From NCBI RefSeq assembly GCF_964213995.1, contig NW_027590119.1, forward strand, positions 682,001 through 746,000: 64,000 nt of DNA. The letters run 5' to 3'. Position 1 is the first letter of the stretch. Each line of letters starts with the position of its first letter. Under the pieces are notes generated by a model. It made no database searches. It worked only from the letters and a program-made list of their open reading frames with translations, and was not told where the DNA came from. Shown here piece after piece: positions 5,584 to 53,320 of the stretch. Made by a program: the position numbers and the translations under genes. Source of the stretch: Mustelus asterias. Taxonomy: Eukaryota.

Positions 5584-5918
5584 GCTCGAGAGGGAATTCA
5601 GCAACTTCCATCATAACCTGAAGGTCAGTATCTGTTTTAAATGTAATATCATCGACAGTGGTCAGAACCAAACCATAATCGTGTTTAAAAAGTAACAAAG
5701 AAAGCATTTAACAGTAAAATTTAACAAAGTCACCGATATAACGGGGTGAGCTTTTCACTGACTTTATATTTATTGTCGTTTCAGCAAGTACAGCACTATC
5801 GTTTTAATATTTCTGATAGATTGTGTTATATAAACAGTTGCCTACATTTTAAGTTAGAGCAGAACAAATGGTCCATTTGAAGTGAATATTGAGCGGCAGT
5901 ACTGAACAGAGCAAGTGC

Positions 5919-5998
5919 AGTTTTTGTACGGGTGTCTGTCACTGTGATACAGCAGTGGGTCACTGTGCTGAACACAGCGACATCCTCATACAAAAACC
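5919..5998 (+). other. D1 diversity segment (coding 5947-5960, ATACAGCAGTGGGT) with 5' 12-RSS and 3' 22-RSS
   Basis: AGTTTTTGT-12-CACTGTG | D | CACTGTG-22-ACAAAAACC; all three frames open (IQQW, YSSG, TAVG). Confidence 0.94.
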
Positions 5999-6308
5999 TC
6001 AGAGAAAGACTTTGCTTAAATATGTGATCAGTGCCACTGCCGAATGCTAAACAAAGTGAGGATTCCAACAAAATAATATGTAGAAGCAGCATTGTTTTTT
6101 ATAAGGTATAAAATACTTCAAATTTATTGTTATTGGTTTACATGCTGAATGTGCACAGAGAGTCTCAAAGTTTCTAATCCCCTTTATCAATCTCATGACC
6201 AGTAAAAATTGAAATATCTCACTGACTCACTCTTAAACGGGATGGAAACAGGCTTTTGAAATAGCAGTGGAATTAACCATCTGCATGATACAGTTAACAG
6301 TCTGCCGC

Positions 6309-6376
6309 AGTATTTGTCATGCTGTGTCTCACTGTGATAACTGGGTGGCACAGTAGTTACTGTCAATACAAAAACC
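6309..6376 (+). other. D2 diversity segment (coding 6337-6348, ATAACTGGGTGG) with 12/12 RSS
   Basis: AGTATTTGT-12-CACTGTG | D | CACAGTA-12-ACAAAAACC. Confidence 0.94.
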
Positions 6377-6700
6377 CCTCAGTACCAATTGATTGAGGCT
6401 GGATCAGAGTCACTTGTAACTTCCAACTTTAATCACAGTACAGTATTATTTATGTCGAGCACTGACCACATGATAAGAATGAACATGGAAGATATGTGAT
6501 AATTACTCAATTATCAGTTGGTGTTTTCAATAACATGTTCATGTGTTCCTCTGTGAAATATATAACATCAATGTCATTTATGAATGGAGAATGGTATCCA
6601 GAAATGCAATGATAATTTAATGAACATTAATTGACTGTTTTTCCTCTGGTTTGTGAATATTTAAAATAATGGTGGTTTTGTGTTTATTTTGTGCAGGGAC

Positions 6701-6739
6701 GGTTATTGTATGACACAGCCCAGAGAATGTGACACTGTG
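6701..6739 (-). promoter_or_regulatory. J 23-RSS
   Basis: GGTTATTGT, 23-nt spacer, CACTGTG immediately 5' of J. Confidence 0.93.
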
Positions 6740-6787
6740 ACGAGTTCGACTACTGGGGACAAGGAACCATGGTGACGGTGACTGCAG
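6740..6787 (+). CDS. IGHJ: IgH joining segment (EFDYWGQGTMVTVTA)
   Basis: WGxG motif; phase-1 donor G|GTAAGA at 6788. Confidence 0.97.
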
Positions 6788-7049
6788 GTAAGAACCATGC
6801 ACTTATTGAGTAATTGGCTTTCATGTGTCTTTATTTTACATTTTTGTCGATACTCATAATCCATTTGTTTACTTAAATGGGGGTTTGGTGGATTCTGGAT
6901 TGTGATTTTTTTACAATGTTTCCTGTGATTCTGCTGCAAAGGGCTTCTAGAATTATGCTGTTTCTTGACAATAGAGGCTGCTGAGCGATTCAATCCCTCG
7001 TTCTTGCGATGTTGTGTTTATCTGTTGAGGTTACTGTGTGGCTGGGTTA

Positions 7050-8980
7050 CTTTAAAAGCCTGACGTCTGTTAAACAATTCAGCGTTTCTGCAATGTTTAA
7101 TCTCGGTGACATCTAGTGGCTGCGGGTTGTACCATCAACTGCACAAGTGTTTGAAATCTAACCGAATATTTTTTTAAAGTTCTAAAATTTCTAGATTAAT
7201 CCAGTGAACATGTTCCACTCACTAGCAGTGCTGGTGCTGCTATGCAATATTTCTGCTTATTATAAACATTAATTACTTTGGTGATGGGTGGATTGGCTGG
7301 AATTTATATTAAAAATTTCTGTCAATGTTACATTTGATTCTGTTGAAAGTGTTTGTAGAATTGAGCTGCTTCTGCAGGAAGCGGGGTTCAGACTCTCAGT
7401 GGTGCGTTTTTTCTGGTGAGATTATGTATCTGGGTGACTTTAAGTAAGTAAAATTTGTGACATAGTTTGGTGTTTCTGCATTGTTTAAACTCGGTGACAC
7501 AGCTGTTACACGCTGCGGGTTTACAATTGCTTGACGCATGACTGCAGGCAGAAATCAGACAGGCTTTAGTGTGTTTGTATTTTTAAAATTTTAAGTGATA
7601 ATTGCAGGTTAAAATAAACCACGGTTTACGCCGCTCGTTCAGAACATAGTTTGTCACGGCATTCACAATCTGAGGTACCTGCAATGTTTAATCTCGGTGG
7701 CATTTGATGGCTGGAGCTTTTACCATCCAAATGTTTAAATATGTTTGAAATATATTCCAATCTGAATAAAATGTGATAACGTTTCAATACTAATTTGTTG
7801 GGCATATTCCATCTCCTCGCAATGCTATTGTTATTATTCCAGATTTATGTTACCTTTAACAATTGGTTAAGAGCTGGTTTGCTAGATTCGATATTGAGAT
7901 TTTCTTGCAATGTGACATTTGATTCTGTTCAATGGATAATTGAGCTGTTTCTCCATGAAACGGATTCATTCCCTCATTGATGTGTTTTGGTGTGTTTCCG
8001 TTGAGGAGATTCTGTGGTTTGGTCACTATGAATGTTTAAAATTTGTGAAATAGTTTGGCTTTGCTGCATTATTTCTGCATTGTTCAAACTCGGTGCCACT
8101 GAGCGGTTAGACGTTTTCTGGTTGAATGCAAACAATCTTTGAGTTTGAAAATCCTTGTAGGGAGAAAACGAGCAGGTTTTGGAAAAAAAACTAAAATAAA
8201 GATATTACAGCATTTTTATAAATTTTAACTAACGCTTACAAATTAAAATACATCATGACGTACAACGCTCATTCGGACACTACGTCGTTGCTGCAATCAA
8301 AAACTTCTCATTAACAAGTTTAATAGTAAAATTAATATAAATCAAACAATTATTAATCGGTAATATAACTCCATATTCACCAAAGATTACTTTGTATTGA
8401 TATAATTTAGCAGTCATCCCCTTTAATAGTTCTGTTGTGCTTTTCACACAATTAACATGACCAGAAAAATTTCCAGACTGCAAATATTTTGTGACAATTC
8501 CAGAAATTATTTCAATGATAACATGCTGTTTCCACAGCAGCTCTCAGCTGAACACGATACTTGGCATTAGTCGTTATATCCCAGATTAAGTTCGCATTCA
8601 CTGGAATACGAGTTTTGCAGAATAAGACGTTGCTTTTTGGCTATTTTTGTATCCGAATACTACATTTTTTTCCTGTGCAGTCGCAACCAGATTATTCCTT
8701 CCAAGTAATTTGTAATTGGATACCGAGATAATTAATTACTAATCTCATCTCAAAATTTGTGAAATGGTTTGGTGTTTCTCAATTGTTTCTGTATTGGTTC
8801 AACTCAGTGATACTGAACGGTTACACGTTTTCTGGCTAAATGAAAATAAAACTGCGTTTGAAAATTCTTGGAGGGGTAAAGTAAACAGGTTTCGGAAAAA
8901 TAAAATAAATATATGTTAGGACTTTTATTCATGTTAACTGATGCTTACAGATTAAAATAAATCATGAATTACAATTCTTA
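7050..8980. repeat. Degenerate ~600-bp tandem duplication in the 5' J-C intron
   Basis: CTG(C/T)A(A/T)TG..T(C/T)AA..(C)TC(G/A)GTG motif at about 7088, 7476, 7679, 8075 and 8790; shared downstream blocks (ACATTTGATTCTGTT; AAATTTGTGA.AT.GTTTGG). Confidence 0.75.
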
Positions 8981-10545
8981 CTGTGTCACCGTATCTCTGT
9001 TAGGGACATTACACTACCCTGAATCTTTTATATTTGATGTGCTCATTTTCAGAAAAAATACATTTTTGCCCAGTTTTCGGGATTTGAGACAGACAGGGAG
9101 AGATAGTTAAAAGGCGAAGGGAGTTTTGAAATGAACATCAGGTTAATTTAAAATATGTATTGATTTTTTTGTTGTTGTAATTTGACCTTTGATCAATTAG
9201 AATCAAAGAGTTTGTATAAATTTGACAGAGTGAACAGAGTTTTCTGACAGGTGGAATTCGCTGACACTCAAGCAATTGTTCATATGATTGTGTTTGAATT
9301 GTAGTAAAGTGTCAACACAAACTGGCTAGAGATGGACAAGTTAATGCTTGAAATTCAAAAAGATTAATTTATGTAAAAATATTCTGATACTATAAAAATA
9401 ATATTAGCTCTGCACTTAATAATAACATCATGTCTCCCATTACTGCTGAACTCAGGATAGAATTATGGGAAGAATAAATGACAGAATAGAAGAATTGATT
9501 ATATCTGAACCTTATGTTTAATACTTGTTAAATATTATAATGAAGAAAAAGTCTGGACTTATATTCTGCATCGTGCTTTAGAGGATTTGAATCAATTGTC
9601 CTCTTTGTGTTTGCACTGTTTAATTCAGATTTTCTTTAATTAAACAATGTGTTCAGTAATTAAGTTATATGGATGGGCTAACTTTTTACATCTAGAATGC
9701 ATTATTATTGATTTCAAACTGCCAGGCCGTTACAGCCTATACAAATTCAGAAGTATGCATTTTTAACACGTTTCTAGGTTATAATACGATATTTGTAGTA
9801 AAAGTGGAAAAGTAAAATATTACAATGTGATTGGATTTAAGTAAATGAATGACAGATTCTGAATGTTTCCATTCAGTAATTTGAAATTATTGTTTAACAT
9901 TGTATAAGGTTTAATTGTAACCTAATTATTTAACAATGCTGGAGGTAGAAGCACGTTTTGAATGATTGAAAACTCATTTTATTACAGAGTTCAAATCAGC
10001 TGATAAGAGAACTAACTGGCAATTAACAATAACTTAAAATATAATATTGCTGCTGATTAATTTAAAACAAAAGAACTTGAATATTGTACAGGTGTGCAAA
10101 ATACAATTAGTTTTAGAGAATATTTAATTGTATCGAAAATGAATTCAGAAACAAAACATTTCTTTACTCAGCTATGCTCAGCTCGATAAAGTATTTTGCC
10201 TTGATTATTTTGTTCATTAATTTAATTAAGAAATTAACTCGAATCAGATAATGATTTTCAATGTAAATGTTTCCTGATTTGTTTAATTCTGACTGTGTCA
10301 CTGCATCTCTGTTAGGGACATTGAACTGTCCTGAACCTGTTATTTTTCATTGCTCATTTTCAGCAAAATTACATTTTTACATAGTTTTCGAGAAGTGAGA
10401 CAGAGAAATAATTAAAAGTCGAAAGGAGTTCTGAAATGAATATCAGTTTAATTTAAAGTAGGTTATTGATTTTCTGTTGTTGTAAGTTGACCATTGATCA
10501 ATTAGAATCCAACAATTTGAATGAAATTGACAGATTGAACAGATC
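8979..10545. repeat. Direct repeat of about 260 bp (8979-9240 and 10291-10545)
   Basis: Both copies start CTGTGTCAC...ATCTCTGTTAGGGACATT and end ...GATCAATTAGAATC...TTGACAGA.TGAACAGA. Confidence 0.8.
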
Positions 10546-11029
10546 TATCTGCTGGGCACTCGATTGTTGCACCGTTTGTGTCTGTTCTGTTTCTGTGCGC
10601 GTGGTCACTGTGTTGGCACCAAGAATCTGCCTGACTGGTTATAAACCTTTTGGTTCCTTCCCCTGTATTTCCGGGAGTGAAAATTGATTTATTTCTTCAA
10701 TAAACTTGTATCTGTGAGAAACGTGACAGGTTGATCTGATGTTTGACTCGGAGTCTCAGAAATAAGATCCCTAAAGCACACTGTGACCGTTAGAGAGAGC
10801 AGAAACGTCAGGCTGCAGAGAGAGATTTGGTTGATTCTTAACCAGTGATATACCGGCTTTGGGAACTTTGGATGAGCAAATGCAAAGGGAGATTTACTAT
10901 ATTGTACTGTATACTATAGCGGTCCCTGACCTGTTTAGTCGAACAGTTACAGGGTCAAATTCGTTTGCATCTTATTCTTAATTTCTAAAGGCAATTTAGA
11001 GTCGCTTGCAAAGCAAGAATTTTAAATAT

Positions 11030-11480
11030 GTCCCTACATAATTGTTCCTTGGGAAAGAATTGATATTAAGTATCCTTGAATAACTGCAGTGCATATGCTG
11101 CAGGCGTCCGCCGTGCTGATGGGCAGGAAGTTCCAGGATTTTGACCCAGCGACTGTGAAGGAACTGAGATATTGTTTCAAGTCAAGATGGTGTGTGTCTT
11201 GTCGGGGAGCTTGCAGGTGATAGTGTTCATATGTGGCTTCTGCCCTTGTCCCGTTAGGCTGTAAAGGCAGTGGGTTTGGACAGTGCTTTCTATGGAGTCT
11301 TGGTGAGTTGCTGCAGTGCATCTTGTATATTATACACTGCTGTAACTGCTTGTTAGTGATAGAGAGAGTGAATAGGGTGACTGAGGGGGTTGGGTAATCT
11401 TGTGGGTGGCTTTGTCCTGGATTGTGTCAAATTCCTTGAGTTTTTACAAGTTTCGCTCATTGAGGAAAGAGGAAATTATT
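11030..11480 (-). mobile_element. Old L2/CR1-like LINE 3' fragment
   Basis: ORF 11034-11321 SFTVAGSKSWNFLP, characteristic of LINE ORF2 C-termini. Confidence 0.6.
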
Positions 11481-11634
11481 CAATTGTGAACTGACTTGTG
11501 AAAGATTTAAATGTTTTTCCAACCCTTGGCCCGCGCTCCGTATTGTGCTCACTTGTCACTCCCATTTACTGTGTGAGTGGGTGAGTGTGTATGTGAAGTG
11601 AGGGTGTTTTTCCAGACTGAATCAGCCAGAGAGA

Positions 11635-13510
11635 GACTTACACACATCACACACTCTCACACACATAAATACACACATACACATTCTCATAGTCTCTCAC
11701 ACATGCACACATATATATTCACACTTACTTTGTCTCTCATCCGATCTCTCTCACACACCCATACACATTCTCTCTCACGTTCTACATACATTCTCTCAAA
11801 TACAAATACACACATACTCTCGCTCTCTCATACCACCATACACAAAAGCACTCACACGCACACCCCCGACACACATTCTCTCTTACACACAGACACACAC
11901 TCTCACATAAGCACAGTCTCACACTCTCACATGCACTCTCTCTCCCACACTCTGTCACACACGCTCAAGCTGTCTCACATTTATTCACACACGCTCTCTC
12001 ACAATTCCTCTTGCGCACGCATCTCTCTCTCTCACTCACACATACACACACGCATATATTTCTAAAGCTCTTGCACACACTATCTCACACCTGTACATTC
12101 TTGCTCTCACACACTGGCTCTCTCATAAACACACTCTCTCACAAACATAGACCCACGCACACACTCGGACACACACTCTTACACACAGACACAGTCTCTC
12201 ACATAAGCACAGTCTCGCGCACACATTCTCCCTCACACACACACACACATACACACACACACACACACACACATGCACTATCCCTCTCACATTCCCTCTT
12301 CCGTGCTCTCACTCCGTCTCACACACATTCCCATGCTCTCTCTCTCTCATACGGACACTTGCACACGCATTCTCTCACACAGGTACGTTTTTATCTCTCT
12401 TTCACCCGCTCACTCCCTTACACATTATCTCACACACGCACAATCTTGCTCTCAAACACTGTATCTCACAAACACCCTCTCTCTCTCACACGCACACAGT
12501 CTCTCCGTCTCTCACACACGAACACACATGTATACACAATGTATCTCTCTTAAACACTCCACCTATCACAGACACATGTCCTCTCAACCGTTATTTCACT
12601 CACACACACTCACGCATCCATTCTGCATCATTTTCACAGTTTTTCTCACTCACACACACTCTCCCCGCCCCTCCACACACACACACGCACACACATATAC
12701 TTTGAAGAACAGAAAAATACTCTCACACACATAAAAAATAACTCTTCAAACACACACACACTCTCTCGCACACACGCATTCTCTATCTCACATATCCTTT
12801 CTCTCACGCACACTCTCTCTTCTTGTACACACAGACCACTTTCTCAAACACGTGCAAAACACTCATGTGTCTGACACACTCTCACACACATAAACCAACA
12901 CAACGTCTCTCTCTCTCACAAAAATTCTCTCTCTCTGTCTCACACACGCACACACACACACACACACTCAAACACATCGCTTCTATCACCCACACACATT
13001 GCACATATCGTTCTCACTCACACGCCATCCCATGCACACTTTCACACACTCATGAACATATTATTTTGCTTTCCAATAGGCACTCCCTCTCACACATACT
13101 GTCTTTCACATGAACACAACACTCTCTCCCACACACACACACCCTCCCTCAAGCACACACACTCACTTTCATAGACACCCTGTATCTCATATAGACACAC
13201 TTCTTTTCACATAAACACACACTCAATCACACACCGAAGTACTCTCTCACACAGACTGCCCACACACACACTTTCAAGAAGAGACACACTCTCACACACA
13301 AAGAATAACTTTTCAAACACACATTCTCTCTCTCACACACACACGTTATCTCACACACCCTTTCTCTCACACACACTCTCCCCTCTTGCACACACAGCCC
13401 ACTGTCTCACACACGTGCAAACGCAGTCTATCACACACAGGCACCCTCACACATACATTCACCCTCTATCTCTCTCACACAGCCAAACACCCTCTCCACT
13501 TTCCATCTCA
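11635..13510. repeat. CA/CT-rich low-complexity tract
   Basis: Degenerate (CA)n/(CT)n, G-poor on the + strand. Confidence 0.9.
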
Positions 13511-13544
13511 CATACGTCAGAGTAATTGTCCTTGACATCATAAA

Positions 13545-13852
13545 TTGAAGCATAGGATCCTCCAGTGCAGAAGGGGCCAATCAGCCCATTGAGTCTGCAC
13601 CAACAGCAGTCCCACCAAAGCCCTATCCCCATAACCACATGTATTTACCCTAACTAGTCCCTCTGACACTACGGGGCAATTTAGCACGGCCAATCCAACG
13701 AACCCGCACATGTTTGGACTGTGGGGGGGAAACAGGAGCACCCGTAGGAAACCCAAGCAGACACGGGGTGAACTTGCAAACTCCACACAGACAGTGAGCC
13801 AAGTCGGGAATCGAACTGTGAGGCAGCAGTGCTAATCACCGTGCCACCGCCC
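13545..13852 (-). mobile_element. HE1-like V-SINE with CR1-type tail
   Basis: Reverse strand: GGTGGCACGGTGATTAGCACTGCTGCCTCACAG...GTGTGGAGTTTGCA...; tail ATGGGCTGATTGGCCCCTTCTGCACTG. Confidence 0.8.
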
Positions 13853-13989
13853 ACCCCCCCCAACCCCCGCTAGCATTTGAATGAGGGTGGGATCGAGGAG
13901 CCCGAGTAAAACTCAAGTCAATAAGAATCGGCGGGAAATTCTTCTCTGTTCGGAGTCATACTTAGCACAAAGCAAGATGGTGTTGGTTA

Positions 13990-14948
13990 TAGAACATAGA
14001 AAGCCACAGCACAAACAGGCCCTTCGGCCCACAAGTTGCGCCGATCACATCCCCACCTCTAGGCCTATCTATAGCCCTCAATCCCATTAAATCCCATGTA
14101 CTCATCCAGAAGTCTCTTAAAAGACCCCAACGAGTTTGCCTCCACCACCACCGACGTCAGCCGATTCCACTCACCCACCACCCTCTGAGTGAAAAACTTA
14201 CCCCTGACATCCCCCCTGTACCTACCCCCCAGCACCTTAAACCTGTGTCCTCTCGTAGCAACCATTTCAGCCCTTGGAAATAGCCTCTGAGAGTCCACCC
14301 TATCCAGACCCCTCAACATCTTGTAAACCTCTATCAGGTCACCTCTCATCCTTCGTCTCTCCAGGGAGAAGAGACCAAGCTCCCTCAACCTATCCTCATA
14401 AGGCATGCCCCCCAATCCAGGCAACATCCTTGTAAATCTCCTCTGCACCCTTTCAATGGCTTCAACATCTTTCCTGTAATGAGGTGACCAGAACTGCGCG
14501 CAGTACTCCAAGTGGGGTCTAACCAGGGTCCTATAAAGCTGCAGCATTATCTCCCGACTCCTAAACTCAATCCCTCGATTAATGAAGGCTAGTACGCCAT
14601 ACGCCTTCTTGACCGCATCCTCCACCTGCGAGGCCGATTTAAGAGTCCTATGGACCCGGACCCCAAGGTCCCTCTGATCCTCTACACTGCTAAGAATGGT
14701 ACCCTTCATTTTATACTGCTGCTCCATCCCATTGGATCTGCCAAAATGGATCACCACACACTTATCCGGGTTGAAGTCCATCTGCCACTTCTCCGCCCAG
14801 TCCTGCATTCTATCTATGTCTCGCTGCAACTTCTGACATCCCTCCAAACTATCCACAACACCACCTACCTTGGTGTCGTCAGCAAACTTACCAACCCATC
14901 CCTCCACTTCCTCATCCAGGTCATTTATGAAAATGACAAACAGCAAGG
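13990..14948 (-). mobile_element. Young 5'-truncated CR1 LINE nested in an older + strand LINE fragment (about 13877-15075)
   Basis: 300-aa uninterrupted ORF2 end with FADDTK; host RT sequence resumes at 14950 (QGIVLGPTIFYCF). Confidence 0.92.
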
Positions 14949-15404
14949 GTTGTTGGAGGTCAAACATCTAAGTTCAGATTTCACTGCAAAAGTTCGGCAG
15001 GGGATTGTTCTGGGACCAACAATCTTCTACTGCTTCACCAAAGACATTCCATCCAACATGAGGTCAGAAGTAGAGATTTCCATGTGTTACACCGGACACA
15101 AAGACGCAATAAGTAAGAAGGGACTTGGCTGAGACCAAGGCCGCCTGGCTCCCCAATACTGGTGTAAACCTGCTGTTTGATTCCTGTGCGACCCATTCTG
15201 GTTGCGCTGTCAGCTTCCCTTCCAGCTCCCTCAGTCTGTCTATTTATTAACTGATACGCGTTTCTTAAAGAAAGGCACCGACATTAAAGCAGCTGCCCGG
15301 TGATCTACACTGCTGTCTGACTTTACACAGCCCTGTTACAGAAAGCTGATCAATGTAGACAATCGGGAAAAGATCGATGGAGAGGAAGAGGAGGAGGTGG
15401 CCCA

Positions 15405-17052
15405 CTGACTCTCTCACCCCCGCCCACACTTCCTCACTCACCCTCAATCTCTCATCCTCACTCAAAGAACTTCACTCACTCACCTTCACTTACCCAACTT
15501 CCCTCGCTGACACACTCTCACTCACTCATCCCCACTCACTCATCCCCACTCACTCATCCCCACTCACTCATCCCCGCTCACTCATCCCCGCTCACTCATC
15601 CCCGCTCACTCATCCCCGCTCACTCTCCCTTGCTCACTCATCCAACCTCACACACTCACCCTCACACACTCACCCTCACGCACTCACCCTCACACACTCA
15701 CCCTCACACACTCACCCTCACACACTCACCTTCACACACTCAACCTCACACACTGAGCATCACACACTCAACCTCACACACTCAACCTCACACACTCTAC
15801 CTCACATAGTCACCCTCACACACACCCTCAGAAACTCACTGATCCTCATTCACCCTGAGTCACTCACCCTCACACCCTCACTCACTCACAATCACTCACA
15901 AACATTCGCTCACTCACTCTCACCCATCCTCACTCACTCACCCACACTCACTCACACACCCTCACTCAACCTCACTCATTCAACCTCAATCACACATCCT
16001 GAATCACTCATCCTCACACCCTCACTTACTCACTCACATTCAGTCACCCTCATTCACTCACTCTCACACCCTCACTCACGCACCCGCATTCATTCACTCA
16101 CACTCACTCACCCTCAGATACCCTCATTTACTCACCCTCATTCACGCACTGTCACTCAGCCACCCACACTCACACACCATCACACACTCAACCTCACTCA
16201 CTAACCCTCAGTCACTCACCAACACTCATACTCACCCTCATTCGCTCACCCTACTTACCCACCCTCACTCACCCAGTCTCACTCACTCTCACTCACTCAC
16301 CGCACTTACCCACCCTCACTCATCCAGTCTCACTCACTCCACTCACCCTCACTCACTCTCCCCACTTACCCACCCTCACTCACCTAGACTCACCCCCACA
16401 CACTCAAGCTCAATCACCCTCTCTCTTTCACTTACGCCACCTGACCCATTCAAACTCACTCAGACTCACGCACCTACATTCACTCACACACCCTCACGTA
16501 CTCACCATCACTCAACTTCACCCACCCTAACTCACAGATCCTCAATCACTCAACCTCACTCAAACACCTTCACTCACTCATCCTCACTCACCCACCCCAT
16601 CCGCATTCAATCTCCCTCACAGTCTCACACACCACCCCCAATAACACACCCTGACTTACTCACTCTCTCACCCTCATTTACTAAGTCATATTCATTCCCT
16701 CACCCTCATTCACTCGCTCTCACTCACCCACCTTCGCTAACCTTCATGCATCCTCACTCACTCACCCTCATTCATTCATTCTCGCTCACCAACATTCACT
16801 CACACACTTTCACTCACCCATTCAGCCACCGTCACTCACACACCCCCTCTCGCACACACCCTCATTTACTAACGCCCTCTCACCCTCACCCACACTTACT
16901 CACTCACCCTCAATCACTCATCCTCACTCAAAGAACTTCATTCACTCACCCTCACTTATCCACTCTCTGTCACTCACACACCATCACTCATCCACTCTCA
17001 CTCCTTCACTCACTCATCCTCACGCACTCACATTCTCTCACTCACCCTCACT
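15405..17052. repeat. (CACT/CACCCT)-type C-rich low-complexity tandem repeat
   Basis: CTCACTCACC, CACACTCACCCT and CTCACTCATCCCCG units; almost no G on the + strand. Confidence 0.9.
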
Positions 17053-17159
17053 AAACCTGTGTGTGGAGGTCTGCAACGAGAGAGAAGAACGATCTCAAGC
17101 GGCAGTTTGGTGTTCAAATGTGGGAGCTGCCCTGCGAATGTGGAGAGCTGAGGGAAATC

Positions 17160-17762
17160 CCTGGGGGCTCAGGGCCAAGGACAATGGCAAAGAGCGGGGG
17201 AGAACAGGAGGCGTGGTAAAGGGCAGAGAGCAGGGGGGGGGAGGGGGGAGGGCAGAGAGCAGAGGCGGGGGGGGGAAGGAGGGGTGGGGAGGAGGGCAGA
17301 GAGCCCGGAGAAAGGGCAGGGAGCCAGGTGAAAGGCAAAGAACCAGGGGAAAGGGCAGAGGGACCAGGGAAAGGGGAGAGAGCCAGGAATAAGGGCAGGG
17401 AAGCCGGGGAAACGACAGGGAGCCGAGGAATAGTGAAAGAGAGCCCAGGGGAAAGGGCAGAGATTCAGGGAGAAAGGCAGAGAGTCAGGGGGAAAGGGCA
17501 GAGAGCCGGGGTAACGGTCAGAGAGCCAAGGGAAAGGGGAAAGTGGATAGGGAGCAGGGAAACCGGGCAGAGAGCCGGGGGAAAGTGTAGGGAGCCGAGG
17601 GAAAGGGCAGATAGCCGGGGGAGAGGGCACAGAGCTGGAGGGAAGTGTAGAGAGCCAGGTGGAAGTGCGGAGAGCCGGGTGAAAGGGGTAAAGAGCCACA
17701 GGGAATAGCAGAGAGCCAGGGGAAAGGGCAGAGAATCGGGGGAAATGGGCAGAGAGTGGGTG
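17160..17762 (+). repeat. G/A-rich tandem repeat, ~19-20 bp unit (consensus GGGGAAAGGGCAGAGAGCC)
   Basis: Roughly 25 degenerate units, very T-poor top strand, poly-G runs at 17233-17290. Confidence 0.9.
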
Positions 17763-18733
17763 ATCGACGGGCGGAGTGAGGATGTGCAAAATAGAGCGAG
17801 CACCACAACCAGATCATCTGTAATCTCAGTGAATAATGGAGGAGACTTCAGGGCCCGAATGGCCAACTCTTGCTATTAATGTATGACCCTTCAATTAGTC
17901 AATGTTGCAATTATTTGAATTTGTAATCACATTTAGAGTTTCCTGGTCATTCAGTAAGTATTCATTCCGAAGGTAGTTTTGAAGCAAAGTCACTAATCTT
18001 CGTTTTGTGGAGTGAGAGGCAGTGAGTTGGAGAGAGGAAGGGACATCAGTTAGTTTGTACATGGGCAATATCCAAAACTACAATGTGGATATGCCGACGC
18101 CAGGTTGGGGTGGGCACAGTAAGGAGTCTCACAACACCAGGTTAAAGTACAACAGGCTTATTTGGAATCGTGAGCTTTTGGAGCTCTTTCATCAGGTGAG
18201 TGGCTGATATGAATGAAGAGACAACTTCTTCATCACAAAGTGCTGTTGTTTGAGAAATAGCGAGTGCCTGAAGTAATGGAGAAACTCTTTACACTTCTCT
18301 GTTAATCTAATGAATGGTATGTCATTACAATGACATCAAAATGTTTTTGTCTTTCCAATCTGATAGAGGTCGAGACAGTGATGTGAGTTTCTACAAAGAT
18401 GGCGATTCTCAAATGATAGGAGTAACAGAAGCTGAAAGTGTATGTAGGTCTTAATCGGGAAATATTAAGTTAAGTTCATAATTCTAGACAAATCGTGATG
18501 TAGAAACATAGAAAATAGAAGCAGCAGTAGGCCATTCGGCCCTTTGACCCTGCTCTACCATTCACTTTGATCACAGCTCATCAATATCCTGACCCCGTCT
18601 ACTACCCATATCCATTGATCCCTTTAGCCCCAAGAGCTATACCTAATATAGAAACTTACTTGTATAAATATGTTTGACTAATTAATAAACGCAGGTAAGA
18701 GTCTAACTTGTTGAATCGACTATTCCTTCCCAG

Positions 18734-19033
18734 TGACACCGTCTCTGCCCAATCTGTACAGCCTGATCTCCTCCTGTCAGCAACACAACACCGGCGGCTC
18801 CGTCACCTATGGCTGTTTGGCGATGGACTACTCCCCAGAAATCACCAGTCTCACCTGGAAGAAAAATGGACAGCTGATCACCACTGGATTTAAGACTTAC
18901 CCATCAGTGAGAAACACGAAGGGAACCTACACCCTGAGCAGCCAGTTAACCATCACCCAGTCAAAGGGAGAGTGCAGCAAAATCGACTGTGAGGTTCGAC
19001 ACAGCGGCTCAGTCAAGAGCATTGAAATGCAAT
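18734..19033 (+). CDS. IGHM: IgM constant exon CH1
   Basis: CCCAG|TG acceptor; (V)[16 protein letters not shown]...[19 protein letters not shown]...YTLSSQL...CEVRHSG; donor T|GTAAGT. Confidence 0.96.
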
Positions 19034-19189
19034 GTAAGTGTTGTGGAACCTGGGCAAGACAGGGGCGCTCTGATTGAACTCTATAAGGCTTCAGTTATAA
19101 CTGATCTGTAGCATTCTGAAAAATTGAATTATGCAAAATCCAGGTAAGTGTCTACTGACTGAAAAGTTGCTCAGAATCAAAGAACAACA

Positions 19190-19930
19190 GAAATGATACT
19201 GTGCAGAATGAGGCCATTTAGCCCATCATGTCTGTGCTGGTCAAAAGGGAGAACAAATAAACTAGCCAGACAAGTTAAGTCTATTTTCCAGCCCTTGCTC
19301 CGTAGCATTGCAGCTTAAAGCAATTGAGATGCAGACCCAGATACCTTTTAAATGACCATGCTCCCTGGTAATTGAGCCCTCCACTTGGGGAATGAATTAT
19401 TTCTGCCTACGTCCCTTATTTTTTTGTGAACCACAATTATGTCACGCCTCAGCCTCCTCTTTTCCTAAAGAGAACAACCCCTGCCTATCCAATCTCGCCT
19501 CATGGCTGCAATTTTCAGGCCCTGGCAACATTCTTGTAAACCTCATCTCTCGCCAGAGTCATTACTTTATTCCTGCAATGTGGTGACCAGAACTGTACAG
19601 CAAACTCGAAACGTGGCCTAACTAGGTTTTATGCATCTCCATCATTGCATCACTGTTTTTGCATTCAATATCTCACATAATAGAGAAACTAATCCGATAT
19701 GCTTTCTTGATCAACTTTTCCAGCTGCCCTACCATCTACAAGGACCTGTGGACGTGCACTCTAAGGTCTTGCATTTCCTCAATCCCACTTAACATTCCAG
19801 TTTATTGCCTTGCTTTGTTTTCCCTCCCCAAATGCATTGTATGGCACTTTTGACCGTTGAATTCCATTCGCCATTTCCCTGCCAATTCAACCAAACCATG
19901 GATATAATTCTCAAATCGGCAGCTATTTTG
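19190..19930 (-). mobile_element. Decayed CR1 LINE in the CH1-CH2 intron
   Basis: KWRMEFNGQKCHTMHLGREN-like peptide and CR1 tail (AGGCCATTTAGCCCATC). Confidence 0.7.
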
Positions 19931-20005
19931 CTCAAATAAAAGAACTAATTTATAATTAATGTCAATTGAATCTTCAAGTAACGTCTGAACATTTGTTTGT
20001 TGAAG

Positions 20006-20317
20006 GCCCAATCGTTATCACCCCAACCGTTATCCTCACCGTGAGTTCCAGTGAAGAAATCACCACCAGAAAATTTGCAATCATCGTCTGTTCAATCATC
20101 GATTTCCAGCCAAAGTCAATGACGGTGAAGTGGCTGAAGAATGGACAACCCATGGATTCAGGAATTGTCACCTCTCCCGCCTATGAGGTGAACAGGAACT
20201 TCTCGGCCAGCAGTCGGCTGACAGTCTCCGCTCAGGAATGGATCAGCAAAGCGGTCTATACCTGCCAGGTCACTCATCAAGAATTCACTCAGAGTCAGAA
20301 CATCAGCGGATCTCTGG
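20006..20317 (+). CDS. IGHM: IgM constant exon CH2
   Basis: TTGAAG|GC acceptor; (C)[17 protein letters not shown]...[21 protein letters not shown]...VYTCQVTH...; donor G|GTAAGA. Confidence 0.96.
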
Positions 20318-20484
20318 GTAAGAGACTCAAACCGAGGATAAAATAAAATATACCATTCCGATGTTAATCGGAATTAGGGGTCTATTAAAGTTAGTACAAA
20401 GCACAGAACAACTTCTAATTTGCTGTCATGTGGTTTGCTGCATTAGGACAGTGCCCCATTCAGAATTTCATCACAACAGCAATT

Positions 20485-20805
20485 TTTGTTATTCCTTCAT
20501 GAGATGTGCATTTATTTCCCATCCCTGAGGGCACTTAAGTGTCAACCACGTTGCTGTGGACCTGGAGTCACATGCATGCCAGGCCAGATAAAGACAGCAG
20601 ATTTACTTTTTTAAAGGGCATTCGTGAACCAGGTGGGCTTTTACAACAACGGCTTCATGATGATCATTTGACTTTTAATTATAGATTTTTATTGAATTCA
20701 AATTTCACCATTTGCAGTGGTGAGATTCGAATCCGTGTCTCTTCAATTAGAGTCTTGTACTCGGTCTCTTGGATTACAAGTCCATTGACAATACCACTGC
20801 CTCCC
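20485..20805 (-). mobile_element. Old tRNA-headed SINE (Deu/L2-tail type)
   Basis: B-box-like GGATTCGAATCTC on the reverse strand and a body resembling shark SINE/L2 tails (CTGGAGTCACATG...CCAG; AACCACGTTGCTGTGG). Confidence 0.55.
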
Positions 20806-21236
20806 CTTGAAAGAGTGTTTCTATTTTGAAGTAACATAGTGAGCGAGGCGGCCTTGATGTCAGCTTTTTTCCTGAGACGGCTGGTAAGATTTGGAGAAAC
20901 AGTTGGTGTTGGACTGTTTCACAGGTCAAAGCGGAGGGGTTAAATGTTGGAAAGTGCATTCACCCTAATAATAAATCAATGACAAGTGCTGTGTTCCTGA
21001 GTAGGGGCATGGTTTGGAATGCTGCAATGCTGATTCATGAGAATGATACCGCTGCTAAAATATTTTAATAAAGAGAATAATTTCACAGAACAAGCTGGTT
21101 TTCCATCGTCTATAGAAGTTTAAAGGCGATACTTAGAGGTTGATATCTCGAAGGCGACTTTTTCTCCTTCAGGCTGAATATTACTGTCCTGCTTCTGAAG
21201 AGGGAACTTGGGTTGATTTTCATTTGTCATTCACAG

Positions 21237-21545
21237 GTCCTTGCCAGTGCCATGATTCCACAGTGACGATACAGCCACCACCAATAGAACAGGTCTTACT
21301 GGAGGCAACAGTGACCTTAACCTGCATCATTTCTAATGCTCCTTATGGAGTCAATGTGTCCTGGATCCGAGACAGGAAGTATTTGAAATCAGAGATTGCC
21401 GAAAAGCCAGGAGCGGATCCTGACAGCGTGGTCAACAAATTAAACATCTCGACAGAAGCCTGGCTGAGTGCGGCTGTGTTTCACTGCGTGGTGAGCCATC
21501 AGGATCTACCGACTCCTTTAAGAAAATCCATCCACAAGGAAACAG
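21237..21545 (+). CDS. IGHM: IgM constant exon CH3
   Basis: TTCACAG|GT; (G)[32 protein letters not shown]...VSW...[14 protein letters not shown]...; donor G|GTGAGC. Confidence 0.96.
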
Positions 21546-22037
21546 GTGAGCTGAGAGATTGAAGCAATAAATGTGTCACTGTGTCTATTTCCAGTGTAAG
21601 TGTACTGGTCAATATTCAGTATTCAGTGCATTAATGGTGTCCCGAGTGGAAACTCCACTAACTAAAGACTCTGGCTGCAGATAGTTTTACGGGGATATTT
21701 GATGTGTTGATGAATGAAAAGTGAACTGAAGGCGATGTTATTGGATTTAGATCGAATAAGGAGGGAGGAGCCTGATGTGGAGCATGAAAACCAATAAAAA
21801 AAGCAGATCAGTTGGGCCGAAGAGCCTGATTCAGTGCTGTAAACTTTCTGAAACTTTCCAGTCCATCCCGCTGAGTTATTTGAGAAAACAATTGCGTTCA
21901 CCTCTCCTCCAAGCTGGAAGTCAAAAATGGAAACATTTAAAATCGAAAGCGAAGCACATTTTTCTGATACCCAGCCAGCAGTTTCATTGTCTCCAGAATC
22001 CTCCAGTTTATTGACATCTATTGTACTTTTTCTGCAG

Positions 22038-22429
22038 ATCCAAATCCGCGGGAACCGTTCGTCTCTGTCCTCCTGCCCTCGGCAGAAGAAGTCTCCGCCC
22101 AGAGATTCGTCTCCCTCAGCTGCTTAGTGAGACGTTTCTCCCCGCGAGAGATCTTCGTCAAATGGACTGTCAACGACAAGCCGGTGAATCCTGGGAACTA
22201 CAGGAACACCGAGGTGGTCGCGGAGAACGGCAATAGCTCCTTCTTCATGTACAGCCTGTTATCCATTGCAGCAGAGGAATGGTCCAGCGGTGCTTCTTAC
22301 TCCTGTGTGGTGGGACATGAAGCCATCCCCTTGAAGATCATCAACAGAACAGTTGACAAATCCAGCGGTAAACCCAGTTTTGTGAACATTTCCCTTGCAC
22401 TGATGGACACCGTTAATTCATGTCAATGA
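22038..22429 (+). CDS. IGHM: IgM constant exon CH4 plus secretory tailpiece
   Basis: CTGCAG|AT; (D)[14 protein letters not shown]...[17 protein letters not shown]...[11 protein letters not shown]...[24 protein letters not shown]; tailpiece has NIS sequon and penultimate Cys; internal donor G|GTAAAC at 22368 for the membrane form. Confidence 0.97.
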
Positions 22430-22456
22430 GAATCACTCGGTTACATTAAAAACTTC

Positions 22457-22471
22457 AATAAAAAGAATAAA
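22457..22471 (+). terminator. Secretory-form poly(A) signals
   Basis: AATAAA at 22457 and 22466. Confidence 0.8.
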
Positions 22472-23599
22472 ATCTTTTTCCTCTAACGATAAATGAAATA
22501 TCCAAACGCCTAATTGATTGTTTTTCAGTTTTACTTCCATTAGATATCTTTGGTTTGAGTCAGATATTTTCAGGTCTCAGGCCCAAGTCTTGTTGAACCA
22601 GTGCGCCCAGCTCAGATACACCCTGTGTTCGAGACAGAGTAGAGCACATTCATTACAGGATTCTGCAAAATATCTTCACCGACGTTCCTCCCTGAGGAAA
22701 AATCCGACAATTTGAACATTTCTAACAAACGAACACAACATTTAGATCTCGGTGTTCCTGCTTCTCTCGTTGTCCATGCCTTTACGCATTGATGTCATAT
22801 TTAAGCTGCTGCACCACACCCACTGGGAACTGGAGTGAGGGTCACACAGAAACATGGAGCAATAATCCCCCCATCAGAGAGAGGGAGAATGAAATTGTGA
22901 ACATACCGGATTCCTACTCACCCAACAAAGAGAGGGGAGGAGCAGTAGCTAACCCATGTACCACCACTTCCTCAATGAAAAGAGGAGGAATGGCCTTATT
23001 TAATCCACTCACCTCCACCTCCTCAGTGGTTAGAACCATCAGGGACATTGCTTCACCAGGTTGAGAGAGGGAAACTATGAGCTCACTCACCTCACTCTCC
23101 CCAAGTAGCGTGTTTGGAAGGGAACGGCTCTCTACTATAAGGACTCAGTTGTCAACAGTGCAAATTAGCTTCCGTTTACTTGCTGCAGATTTTGAAGTAT
23201 CATTATCATTATCAAAGTGTCATTGAAGTATATAATACACATATACTTATATATATATATATAATATATGTATATATGTGTGTACTTATATACATATATA
23301 CTTATGCAACATAATTTAAAAATGTTGCAACACTCTTGTTCCTGTTAATCATGTGCTGGCATTGATTTCCCAGAATACAAATTTAAACAAATAATAGAAT
23401 CCTCCCCGGTTTTCACTGTTCTGTCACTGAGGTTTCTGAGATGCATCAATGAATTATTTCATTCGCTCTCCTGATATCACCGTGCCACTCACATAAAAGA
23501 AATTTATACAGCAAACACTGAAAATGTGCTCCATTATTCATATTGTTTGGATCATGTTCAGTTAATGATTACCGGTGAAACTTGAAGCAACAGTTAAAA

Positions 23600-24099
23600 A
23601 ATACACACACTGACAATACCGCACAAAACTGTCACAATTATAAATACACACATAGGCGCACACACACACAGACACACACACACACATCGACACAAATGCA
23701 CAAATACACGCACAAATACACATACTCACAAATATGCACACAAATGCAGAAAGACACATGTAAATACACTCACACAAATGCATGCACATATACAGAAATA
23801 CGGACAGGCGCATTCAAATACAGACATAGAAGCACTCACACACAGCACATACACATGCACAGAACACACAGATACATGCATACACACAGATACACTTTCA
23901 CACACCATAGGTACATGCAATACTTGCACAAACGAACACACATGCAGAGAAACAAGAATGCGCACACAAATTCACTCATGGACAACGCAGGCACAAACAA
24001 AAATACACACACAAATACACACAGACACAAATACACCCACACAAAAATACACCCATACATAAATACATCCGTACACAAATATACATAGGTACACACACA

Positions 24100-24161
<62 letters not shown>

Positions 24162-25010
24162 TACATAGACTCGCGCTTGTACAAACAGGCACTAAAACAA
24201 CAACATACGTAGATAATCAAATATGTACAAACGCACACATATACACATAAAACACACAAGTACATACACATTCACATACGTGAGTAGGTACACAGACCCA
24301 AACACAAACACATACATTCAGAGACACAATACAGACAGATACACACGCATGCAGACCCAGATAAATAGACAAGCACATACATCATCTCAAATAAATACAT
24401 ATATTAGCACACATTCACGCTGACAGGAGTATCGATATAAAGACGCACAATGTTATACACATTAACAAACATACATGGAAATATATATAAACAAATTAGC
24501 AGACTGCATATAGATGAACAGACTGCAAAACTTTTACACGCAAACATGTAGACGCAAACATTAACATGCTCATACAGAACAGAACACCATCGCACACATT
24601 ACTACACATCGAAACACAAACATACATCAACACACCGTTATAAAGAACTATCAACACGTACATACATGTACTGACCTGTTAACAGACATACACACAGACA
24701 CACGGAGAGACAGAAAGGGAAACAAACATTACTAGAGTGACAGAAATTAACACATAGCAAGAGGCATAAACACACGTGCGCCCATTAAGAATGGCGTTAA
24801 GAAATATTCATAGACTTCACACAATAATAGAATCATACATACACAATGACACAAGAATAAAATATACACACAGATGCAGACACACAACTTCACAAATCAA
24901 CAACCATAGGCAAATGAACACGTACATTAACACTCTTGCACACATATTAACTCAAAGCTAAAGAATAATGCAGACCAGGAGATGCTCATGCACACGCACA
25001 CAAACGCATG
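23600..25010. repeat. CA-rich low-complexity tract between CH4 and TM1
   Basis: Degenerate (CA)n/(CATA)n with perfect (TC)n(CA)n at about 24103-24157. Confidence 0.9.
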
Positions 25011-25576
25011 ATCTTAAATACAAACGGTAGGCAAATGATGAATGTAAAATTTAAGGGTGATTTTTTAATGCACATATCCACAGATTAACTCTCCAAATGT
25101 ACAATGAACAGACAAACACATTGAGAAGCTGAATTAAGCTCATGATCTATTTCCACCATAAAGAAGCACAGATCGGAAATTACATCCCAAGTCTTAAACA
25201 ACAACATTTACAGTTTATAGATCAGTAACCATCTGTGAAAACAATCATTGATCAGTGAACGTTCCTCGATATCAGTCATAACATTCTTCAATAAGGGATA
25301 GTGGCAAATAGTTCAAAAATGAACTGATACTCAATTAAACATCTTCAGTGTTTTCTGACATGGACTGTCCAAGGAATATCAATAAAGATCAGGTGTGAAA
25401 ATAGTTACGGAGATCGGTTACTGAGTGTCCTGAATTTAACAGTAGATACACATTGAAAATTAAATTCGAGATTAAATGAACAGCTTAAAAAGGAGAACGG
25501 GGCACATAAAAATAACAATAAGATCACCTGGATAAATAAAGTAATCTAATTTCAGTTCCTGGTCTCCGTCCCCTAG

Positions 25577-25704
25577 ACTCCACCGACCGCGTCTGGATTG
25601 ACGACAATGACGATGATAACAGCAACATCTGGACAACCGCTTCTACATTCATCGTGCTGTTCTTCCTGAGCATTTTCTACAGCACTGCCGTCACTCTGGT
25701 GAAG
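25577..25704 (+). CDS. IGHM: IgM transmembrane exon TM1
   Basis: CCCTAG|AC; (D)[42 protein letters not shown] with the conserved antigen-receptor TM motif; donor AAG|GTGAGA. Confidence 0.95.
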
Positions 25705-25845
25705 GTGAGATGATTCAATTCACTCACATTTCAAATTGGCAGAATGGATTTGAAAAAAATTCTCAATGTTTCGCTGATTAAAAACTCTAACATTAATGTC
25801 CCGCATCATCAACATCTGCTTCATTATTGTATCTTTCTTTTACAG

Positions 25846-25854
25846 ATCAAATGA
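25846..25854 (+). CDS. IGHM: IgM exon TM2 (IK*)
   Basis: Polypyrimidine TCTTTCTTTTACAG|ATC AAA TGA; AATAAA at 26308. Confidence 0.85.
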   Translation: MK

Positions 25855-27304
25855 TGGGTTGAATTTTGGAAGCTGCAGATTTCCTGCAGCTGATTATCAA
25901 GATCTCTGTATGGATCAAATACAATATCTGCTCTCGGTGACTCTATCAGTAAAATTCTCTCAGTTTATCATTCTGAATCTGTAACTGAGGCAATTATAGA
26001 CGTGAATTCAGTTTTCAGTGTGAAATGTACGAGGCATTTTTTGTTATAATGTAATTGTGATTAATAGTTTCCCCGTAGTTTAAAGATCATGTATAAATAA
26101 GAAACTTTTCTCATTCCTTATTCACATTTGATAATTCCTCTTTCTATTAAGATCCTGTTTTCTCTTTCTGGTGTATGTAACAGATGTACAGATACTGACG
26201 GATTCCCTGTGCATCTGTTCTGTTCTCAATGTGAAGCTCGATCGTTATGTTCACTTTTCTAACTTTAAAAAAATAATGTTGCTGTAAAATATTCTCTGAA
26301 TTTTTAAAATAAATATTGAATGAAATTTTAACCATCTCTGGCTTGGCTTAATTCCGTTCTCCAAAACACATCAACTCCGCCCCATTTTCCCCATTACACG
26401 GTTTCCCCTCTTTCCCAGACAGGGATTTTCCCCAGTCATATGTGGGACGTGGTTGAACTCAATGCCCTTTCGTGAAAGAGTCACTGCGCCACCCAGTGAC
26501 CCATCCGTGTAAATACACCTTCATCGCTGCCTTTTTATGATAAAATCCAGATACAGAATGAATGAATAATGAGGAGAACCGCGGTGATTTCAAGCATAAA
26601 CTGGTCTGTCACTGACGAGTTTCAGGTAATTCTAAACAGCAAAAGGCTCATTCATTAGAGGCCGATGCAGGACAGTGTGTGGCAGAAGATAGTTTCCTAT
26701 ACACTGTCCCTTAAAAACAGTATCAGTGTCGCTGCAGCGTGGGTTAACAGAGTGTATCTCTCTATATATCGTCCGATGAAATACTTCGCAGGCAGGCAAA
26801 CCACAAGCTAGATAGAGAACACATACAGAACAGATGTGCAAACCATGGGGTGAAACCAAGAGAATGAGGTGTATTTCACATAAGCACATCATCGATTGCA
26901 AATTTCCAAATTATGACTAATGTTGTGGGATAATTTGAGATGACCAATACTGTCGTTAACTACAGACAATATAAAACTCACGAGGCAGGTATCTCTGTGT
27001 GAGGAGGTCAAAATGAACATTCCCACCGGCTCATATCCAAAACTGGATAGACACGTGATCCTGAGTCCCAGTACGATCTGTTCTATGTCTAAACATTGAA
27101 TGTCCCCATTCATAAAGTTGCAAAATGTGTTCCCTCGCCAGAAACTTTCAGATATTAATTCTGCAACTACTAAGGTTCCCAGGCCATTGGCTCTCAACTC
27201 TTCGATTTGTCATCATACCGTACAGTGACTTGCTTTTGGTTGAAATGAACAATAATTCATTCAATACATGAATTACATTTAAAATATGAGCATATATGTT
27301 TTAT

Positions 27305-28432: not shown

Positions 28433-29422
28433 ATAAGAACAAAGAACAAAGAACAATACAGCACAGGAACAGGCCCTTCGGCCCTCCAAGCCCGCGCCGC
28501 TCCCTGGTCCAAACTAGACCATTCTTTTGTATCCCTCCATTCCCCCTCCGTTCATGTGGCTATCCGGATAAGTCTTAAACGCTCCCAGTGTGTCCGCCTC
28601 CACCACCTTGCCCGGCAGCGCATTCCAGGCCCCCACCACCCTCTGTGTAAAATACGGCCTTCTGATATCCGTGTTAAACCTCCCCCCGCCCTCACCTTAA
28701 ACATATGACCCCTCGTGAACGTCACCACCGACCTGGGAAAAAGCTTCCCACCGTTCACCCTATCTATGCCTTTCATAATTTTATACACCTCTATTAGGTC
28801 ACCCCTCATCCTCCGTCTTTCCAGTGAGAACAACCCCAGTTTACCCAATCTCTCCTCATAACTAAGCCTTTCCATACCAGGCAACATCCTGGTAAACCTC
28901 CTCTGTACTCTCTCTCAAGCCTCCACGTCCTTCTGGTAGTGTGGCGACCAGAACTGGACACAGTATTCCAAATGCGGCCGAACCAACGTTCTATACATCT
29001 GCAACATCAGACCCCAACTTTTATACTCTATGCCCCGTCCTTTAAAGGCAAGCATGCCATATGCCTTATTCACTACCTTCTCCACCTGTGACGTCACCTT
29101 CAAGGATCTGTGGACTTGCACAACCAGGTCCCTCTGCGTATCTACACCCTTTATGGTTCTGCCATTTATCGTATAGCTCCCCCCTACTTTAGTTCTACCA
29201 AAATGCGTCACTTCGCATTCATCTGGATTGAACTCCATCTGCCATTTCTTTGCCCAAATTTCCAGCCTATCTATATCCTTCTGTAGCCTCTGACAATGTT
29301 TCTCACTATCTGCAAGTCCAGCCATTTTCGTGTCGTCCGCAAACTTACTGATCACCCCAGTTACACCTTCTTCTAGATCGTTTATATAAATCACAAACAG
29401 CAGAGGTCCCAATACAGAGCCC
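28433..29422 (-). mobile_element. 5'-truncated CR1 LINE
   Basis: ORFs 28915-29442 and 28552-28887 ([28 protein letters not shown]) plus tail. Confidence 0.92.
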
Positions 29423-30025
29423 GATATGAATAAAAGAAACACGCATTATGACACTGAATGCAACCTGAAACCATTAATCGCAGACGTTATGCAAATAAGC
29501 AACAGTTCCAAATGGGAGAAGAAAGGATAAGAAGAGAGCAGTAATAATAAACCAGCATTAATAATCATTCTATAAAATATCATGTCGCAATATTTGCATA
29601 GAAAGGAAGAGGCTTTCGACTGGATTCCACTGGATGGCGCTCCAGGACTTTAGATGTGGCCAAAAATATCCGATAGCATCAGTTTATTGGTACCACAGGT
29701 GACAGTTGGGATTGCAGGAAATATCGTTGCCTGGAGGCAACACTTCATACGACAGAGCATTTAAAGGAGGAGCTTGCATCCAAATTGCAGGCTTTATGAT
29801 AAAGGAGATTTAGACAGTGAACCTTCTTGTATTCATTCGTGTATTCAAAGTTCAAAGGATTTGATCAAACATGAGTTCATTCTTATTGTCAAGTCCGTGT
29901 GTGTGTGTGTGTGTGTGTGTGTGGAGAGAGGGTGGATGGTAAATCATCAGCTCGTTACACCAGCTGACACTCCAAGGAGTTCATCTTCAGATGCAGACGT
30001 TTGTTCAGCTATTAATTAAACTCAG

Positions 30026-30157
30026 ATGTGGAGATGCCGGCGTTGGACTGGGGTAAGCACCGTAAGAAGTCTCACAACACCAGGTTAAAGTCCAACAGGT
30101 TTATTTGCTACCAAATAAACCTGTTGGACTTCAACCTGGTTTTGTGAGACTTCTTAC
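30026..30157. mobile_element. Penelope-derived terminal-repeat fragment (internally inverted)
   Basis: GGAGATGCCGGCGTTGGACTGGG...CCAGGTTAAAGTCCAACAGGTTTATTTG then its inverse; same family as 38975-39380. Confidence 0.65.
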
Positions 30158-30339
30158 ATTGATTAAACTCAGGACAGAGCTAGCGACTGTATTAGTTATT
30201 TTTATTTTATACCTTGGTGCTTTGGCTTCAGTCATAATTGAATCAGAATACATAATTATTTTTTATGCAAGAACATACTTCAATGGTGGCTATCTTACCC
30301 AGCATTCACAGTGAATCAGAATATGATCTATACTTACAA

Positions 30340-52918: not shown

Positions 52919-53320
<402 letters not shown>

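Follow-up and report, generated by a model that had tools for sequence, protein, structure and literature searches.

A candidate Emu3'-like enhancer beside a CTCF-like site, 3' of an IgM minilocus in the shark Mustelus asterias

In the channel catfish, the Emu3' enhancer lies directly 3' of IGHM; its core combines two variant octamers with a single muE5 site and is driven by Oct2. One of these octamers is spelled out as ATGtAAAT, and the catfish VH promoters are octamer-dependent (PMC1800861, in the part available). In the mouse, the Igh 3' regulatory region (hs3a/hs1.2/hs3b/hs4) extends over about 28 kb and comprises four enhancers, a palindrome, and Pax5 and NF-kB sites (PMC4000994, in part). 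The mouse locus also has ten tandem 3' CTCF-binding elements, which are convergent with the sites of the VH domain (PMC10293834 and PMC5859386, both in part).

How a single heavy chain comes to be expressed in sharks, which have 15-200 independent miniloci, has been described as a long-standing puzzle, for which infrequent formation of promoter-enhancer complexes has been proposed as the solution (PMC2435157, in part). The same partial source reports shark IgH genes without an upstream promoter octamer, and Malecek et al. argued there that the shark IgH factors are distinct from the octamer-using light-chain factors. An ortholog of OCA-B is present in sharks (PMC13043367, in part). In literature searches that covered few subscription papers and only some of the older shark work, no title or abstract opening described an IgH enhancer or boundary from a shark. 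Term look-up for a shark IgH enhancer yielded nothing in PMC5192425, PMC13670022, PMC3308330 or the available part of PMC2192082.

We analyzed a window of 64,000 nucleotides of M. asterias DNA, which contains one IgM minilocus followed by a neighbourhood of C2H2 zinc-finger genes, five tRNA genes, a 7SL gene and several decayed tRNAs. The features are collected in Table 1. Open frames were found for the leader, VH, Cmu1-4, the secretory tail and TM1, and TM2 was read from the sequence; the IgM gene is intact. The VH, D1, D2 and JH segments carry the expected signal sequences in an RSS scan. In a protein search, Cmu4 shared 98% identity with the IgM of Triakis scyllium, so that the gene probably comes from a houndshark. 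Within 500 bp before the leader ATG, no octamer was detected at one mismatch or fewer, as had been noted for this VH promoter from the letters alone.

Table 1. Positions of the IgM minilocus, the motif cluster and the neighbouring features in the window.
Feature	Position	Strand	Remarks
IgM minilocus	5062..25854	+	leader 5062, VH 5240-5544, D1 ~5947, D2 ~6337, JH 6740-6787
IgM constant part	Cmu1-4 ~18734-22429; TM1 25577-25704; TM2 25846-25854	+	includes secretory tail
Second CTCF-like site	26484..26502	-	12.75 bits; ~170 bp past TM poly(A) signal, facing IgM
5'-truncated LINE, reverse-transcriptase fragment	28434..29423	-	Pfam RVT_1, E 2.4e-7; many copies in window
Island with motif cluster	29423..29882		460 bp, single-copy within window
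Consensus octamer 1, ATGCAAAT	29489..29496	+	word match
Consensus octamer 2, ATTTGCAT	29592..29599	-	opposite orientation to octamer 1, at a distance of 103 bp
Ets-type GGAA word, AAAGGAAG	29602..29609	+	common: 127 Ets words in window
CTCF-like site	29624..29642	+	13.9 bits, rank 4 in window; core word CCACTGGATGGCGC at 29627-29640
Overlapping Runx word and muE5-type E-box, ACCACAGGTG	29692..29701	+	Runx 29692-29697, E-box 29696-29701
CAGTTG, weak E-box	29703..29708	+	
Second Ets-type word, CAGGAAAT	29715..29722	+	
RFX-like inverted repeat	29726..29741		4-bp spacer; absent from the sequence-only reading
(GT)n tract and head-to-head SINE-like repeat pair	29897..30165		between island and next promoter
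CpG-rich promoter-like segment	30340..30670	+	CpG o/e 0.81 against 0.49 window-wide

A sequence-only reading of this DNA had listed octamer, Runx/E-box, Ets and CTCF-like words in a cluster 3.6 kb past TM2. A word scan of the 64-kb window recovered every one of them where it had been placed, and the first octamer was measured to lie 3635 bp past TM2 with no other gene in between. The DNA had been called non-repetitive-looking, and this holds within the window, where self-BLAST and nhmmer --max detected no second copy of 29423-29882. The count of about six octamers, including a further pair at 49508 and 49618, proved to be exactly six (29489, 29592, 33016, 41719, 49508 and 49618). All six lie at 29.4-49.7 kb, on the zinc-finger/tRNA side, and none is inside the IgM gene. 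Three features had been left out of that reading: the zinc-finger CpG promoter downstream, the IgM-facing site at 26484, and, in the J-C intron, a higher-scoring CTCF-like site at 7104.

The cluster lies immediately 3' of the mu gene and contains two octamers and a muE5 word, as the catfish Emu3' does in its position and short core. The shark octamers are of the consensus type, whereas those of the catfish are variant, and a CTCF-like site stands between the octamers and muE5, unlike in the catfish enhancer. Furthermore, the catfish VH promoters use octamers and the VH promoter here has none, and the downstream neighbour is IgD in the catfish but the zinc-finger/tRNA region here. By position and words, read from the shark sequence, the island is a candidate member of the catfish-type enhancers. 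What the locus has in common with the mouse 3' regulatory region (PMC4000994, in part) is a location 3' of the constant genes, together with octamer sites and CTCF or CTCF-like sites nearby; in contrast to its multiple enhancers, there is one 250-bp cluster here, in which no NF-kB consensus word was found.

The cores of the TCR delta and gamma enhancers contain adjacent Runx and Myb sites. The island likewise has a Runx word 5 bp from CAGTTG, which we take to be readable on the minus strand as a Myb-type word, together with E-box and Ets words, all of them 6-mers that are common in the window.

We tentatively interpret the island as an Emu3'-like enhancer beside a boundary site. If so, it would be a real cis-regulatory module that sits where the IgM minilocus meets the zinc-finger/tRNA neighbourhood and acts like the teleost Emu3'. 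Its two octamers would be bound in B cells by Oct2 or Oct1, alone or together with OCA-B, and an E-protein, a Runx factor and an Ets factor would bind the words on the right-hand side. The module may then contact the VH promoter, which lacks octamers and lies 24 kb upstream; the looping, its cell specificity and the target gene are predictions of the model. The CTCF-like site at 29624, in the middle of the module, would together with 26484 mark a switch in CTCF orientation and limit loops coming from the zinc-finger side. Some genuine regulatory role of the island is probable, because the enhancer reading and that of a constitutive border or zinc-finger module are not mutually exclusive.

CTCF-like sites were scanned with a CTCF matrix, at a threshold of 12 bits or more. 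By the usual strand-based facing rule, a site on the forward strand faces downstream. The sites found were 4943, 7104 and 26484 on the minus strand, 29624, 30654 and 37208 on the plus strand, 50288 on the minus strand and 50343 on the plus strand. Thus, the polarity flips across the 26484-29624 interval (8 sites, about 2 expected by chance), and 26484 and 29624 form a divergent pair, 3.1 kb apart, whose cores differ at 1 of 13 bases. On these few sites, the layout looks like that of a domain border. The site at 29624 is outscored by 7104 (18.3 bits, in one of the J-C intron units), 50288 and 4943, and carries G at a conserved A column, which costs about 4.4 bits. In non-repeat DNA, six sites of at least 12 bits were found against shuffle means of 1.8-2.4, about three times as many; this number was matched by 20/1182, 12/932 and 34/826 shuffles, and none of 500 column-shuffled matrices reached seven sites. 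Therefore, some of the sites are probably real, and individual ones are indistinguishable.

The sequence-only reading had offered the cluster as a B-cell enhancer or a 3' insulator. The enhancer half is consistent with position and grammar, while the insulator half fits only in a changed form. Between TM2 and the next promoter there are two sites in total, one of them in the island, and no tandem array. The site at 29624 ranks fourth and faces the zinc-finger/tRNA side, away from IgM; because all ten of the mouse 3' sites converge with those of the VH domain, it fails as an anchor of the mouse type. The site at 26484 does face IgM. What is shared with the mouse 3' Igh CTCF super-anchor, as far as the partial sources describe it, is CTCF-like sequence between an IgH locus and unrelated downstream genes; instead of ten tandem VH-convergent sites, one site here faces away and one, 3.1 kb upstream, faces IgM. 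At the VH promoter itself (4904-4975), two minus-strand CTCF-like sites (4904 and 4943) and a TGACG half-site at 4971 were observed.

The island is flanked by repeats on both sides. On the left, the LINE match ends at 29422, so that the LINE does not continue into the island, and it possibly has a 4-bp target-site duplication. Removal of two LINE pieces places the island arithmetically about 2.3 kb from TM2, and if the target duplication is real, this would be its former distance. On the right, past the GT tract and the SINE-like repeats, the CpG-rich segment contains NRF1-like words at 30348 and 30635 and an RFX-like word at 30431. Next to it comes sequence with homology to the 5' portion of C2H2 zinc-finger genes, and the segment probably drives the zinc-finger ORF at 34519-35142. 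This is the promoter nearest to the island, at 0.6-0.9 kb, and it is probably of the housekeeping type.

Accordingly placed, the island could instead be an element of the downstream domain, bound in all tissues by CTCF, ubiquitous Oct1 and perhaps RFX, with no part in IgM activation. It would then either form the left-hand boundary of the zinc-finger/tRNA/7SL neighbourhood or serve the zinc-finger promoter as an upstream module. We consider this reading only slightly less likely than the enhancer. It gains from the proximity of the CpG promoter compared with the 24 kb to VH, from the polarity switch, from the enrichment of CTCF-like sites in non-repeat DNA, and from the use of octamers by ubiquitous genes as well (PMC1800861, in part). 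The RFX-like pattern, which was loosened after the site at 29726 had been noticed, has three matches in the window (29726, 30431 and 36607), and the two outside the island are both in zinc-finger promoters. RFX inverted repeats have a spacer of 0-3 bp, and that of the site at 29726 is one longer. However, the only CTCF-like site of the island is mismatched at a conserved column, the island shares no homology with the sequence around other zinc-finger promoters, and the Runx and muE5 words are left unexplained. Moreover, no exact octamers were found within 1 kb upstream of the other zinc-finger promoters, or within 300 bp upstream of all five intact tRNA genes or the 7SL gene.

The enhancer interpretation also has to be weighed against chance. 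Six octamers in the window are ordinary: at least six occurred in 392/1573 whole-window shuffles, and the Markov expectation is 2.8-4.1. Two octamers within one 250-bp window arose somewhere in 114/1573 shuffles. In shuffles of non-repeat DNA, such a pair was obtained within the 3' flank in 26/3779. The five motif classes of the sequence-only reading were chosen post hoc, with the sequence already seen; their score was matched in 31/1573 whole-window shuffles anywhere and in 0/1573 within the 10 kb after TM2, and their exact combination in 1/1573. For a panel of 14 classes of B-cell words, the corresponding counts were 355/1573 and 35/1573, and in the unmasked ranking by this panel the island was third (8.34), after the tRNA-pseudogene sites at 49377 (9.52) and 41506 (8.36).

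Because 29 of the 31 null matches to the five classes fell in the first 36 kb of the shuffled window, a bias whose source is probably the shuffled CA-rich arrays, the test was redone on masked DNA (31.6 kb of non-repeat DNA, 3779 shuffles). Given for anywhere, locus and flank, the matches were 2, 1 and 0 for the five classes, 395, 112 and 11 for the 14-class panel, 101, 71 and 9 for the catfish grammar (two octamers and muE5), and 1305, 552 and 72 for the panel minus CTCF. The island ranked first in three of these four scorings and second in the last, in which its score is unremarkable. The mask favours the candidate, since it retained 3/6 octamers and dropped the rival pair and the competition from tRNA pseudogenes. 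The catfish grammar, which fits the enhancer interpretation, had been published beforehand and is rare by chance in the flank (9/3779).

Real sequence served as a further control. A close pair in the flank was found for 18/3332 same-composition 8-mer classes and 7/735 octamer anagrams, the octamer being counted in both, and a close pair anywhere in unmasked DNA for 78/3332 classes. When the island alone was shuffled (dinucleotide and trinucleotide), two octamers appeared in 17/4000 and 13/4000, a CTCF-like site of at least 13.9 bits in 12/4000 and 10/4000, and muE5 alone in 465/4000 and 725/4000. Taking the 3'/in-locus position and the catfish grammar as predictions made in advance gives a chance probability of roughly 0.2-3%; otherwise it is roughly 10-20%. 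Thus, the cluster is moderately above chance, and the clustering is out of the ordinary, though not overwhelming.

A further reading, about as likely as the constitutive one, is that short motifs, picked after inspection, came together by chance, either in neutral spacer DNA or in an old repeat that has since decayed; similar clusters arise without function. The window has 81 octamers at one mismatch or fewer, the broad panel was matched anywhere in 10-23% of shuffles (395/3779 and 355/1573), and old repeats are common, because about 41% of the window matches another part of it by self-BLAST. A second octamer pair also exists; it is partly explained, since the octamer at 49508 lies within a decayed tRNA-Val (49484-49553, nhmmer E 0.0018). 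Against chance stand the occurrence of the octamer pair and the CTCF-like site, two independent rare features, within 150 bp, the rarity of the exact five-class combination, and the teleost precedent, which had predicted the position of the cluster. In addition, no Pfam match was found for the longest frame that overlaps the island (29765-30016).

A true IgM enhancer in the J-C intron, as in tetrapods, with the 3' island at most accessory, is very improbable: the intron units at 6827-8864 carry the best CTCF-like site of the window, and ATGTAAAT at 10261 near CAGGTG at 10089 makes the second-ranked window for the catfish grammar, but that window scores 2.37 against 4.18 for the island, with one variant octamer only, and the J-C intron contains no exact octamer.

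The J-C intron contains families of diverged repeated units with 65-82% identity (6827-8864, 8038-8974 and 8973-10551), which together with the 7104 site may constitute an intronic control region. The J-Cmu1 distance is about 12 kb here and 6.3-6.8 kb in the nurse shark (PMC2435157, in part), and the spacer at 11600-17800 is filled with tandem arrays rich in CA and in purines. The intron units were rejected as homologues of the island: the best local score of 248 lay within the null range of 213-269, 1 of 16 targeted comparisons reached 1/200, and a profile of the units missed the island. Against the other octamer sites and zinc-finger promoters, the best result (0/200, promoter at 53900) was a 52-bp patch outside the motif cluster, and homology was rejected here as well.

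Other identities were also tried and discarded. A four-tRNA model with filters off gave 31 matches at E<=10, none of them at 20.4-31.2 kb; it recovered the decayed tRNA-Val weakly (E 1.8), so that its sensitivity is limited. No Rfam match was found inside 29480-29725 at E<=10, and none at gathering score in 29300-31000, which argues against a small RNA gene or a distal element of the snRNA type, in which an octamer precedes such a gene by about 200 bp. The sub-threshold Rfam matches in 29300-31000 come from the GT tract and the SINE hairpin, a structure of head-to-head SINE-like pieces at 30054-30165 whose sub-threshold microRNA matches are probably an artefact. The island contains short frames only, two nearby ORFs had no Pfam match, and coding potential was dismissed. 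Exact octamers lie near 3/14 tRNA-like or 7SL genes, all three pseudogenes, which does not support octamers as a standard element upstream of Pol III genes in this window. A scan for further IgM loci, in a set containing no shark DNA, produced 127 pattern matches and one weak bacterial locus and was discarded.

The cluster is a testable lead, built from short motifs, rather than a finding. Should the Emu3'-like interpretation be right, a 250-bp candidate with named sites would make the promoter-enhancer-complex model directly testable, and it would date the 3' enhancer position. If the island is only a boundary or a chance cluster, it is ordinary. A wider joint reading is improbable: the island would be the first IgH enhancer from a cartilaginous fish, each minilocus would be self-contained, having a 3' enhancer to itself within a divergent CTCF border, and the element would have two parts. 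The TCR-enhancer-like half (Runx, Myb, E-box and Ets) would open the locus in all lymphoid precursors, and the octamer half would supply the B-cell input missing from the VH promoter. IgH rearrangements are seen in shark thymocytes, which would need such opening in lymphoid precursors. On the two-part reading, jawed vertebrates would have inherited the position 3' of mu from their common ancestor, and the intronic Emu would be a derived state.

Several minor features of the downstream region were recorded. tRNA genes for Val, Glu, Gln, Leu and Glu, the 7SL gene and decayed tRNA copies occupy 36887-50939, adjoining the IgM cluster; tRNA clusters can serve as insulators. A minus-strand tRNA-like gene at 44454-44540, whose anticodon arm carries an insert of about 18 nt, was called Leu by ARAGORN at a lowered threshold; we take it to be Pro-like. 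Two divergent decayed tRNA-Gln-like copies (41630-41889) enclose the octamer at 41719. A 190-bp duplicate with 93% identity and no Rfam match (49720-49911 and 51157-51347) precedes the decayed tRNA-Val and the 7SL gene, both on the minus strand, at an upstream distance of about 170-220 bp. Minus-strand reading-frame pieces at 62584-64000 presumably belong to a non-LTR retrotransposon of a family other than the common LINE. Zinc-finger arrays have been reported around shark MHC-like genes (PMC10751288, in part). In the present window, further minus-strand C2H2 zinc-finger arrays are found at 52965-53441 and 58896-60185, and the segments 34114-35139 and 59565-60590 are 88% identical.
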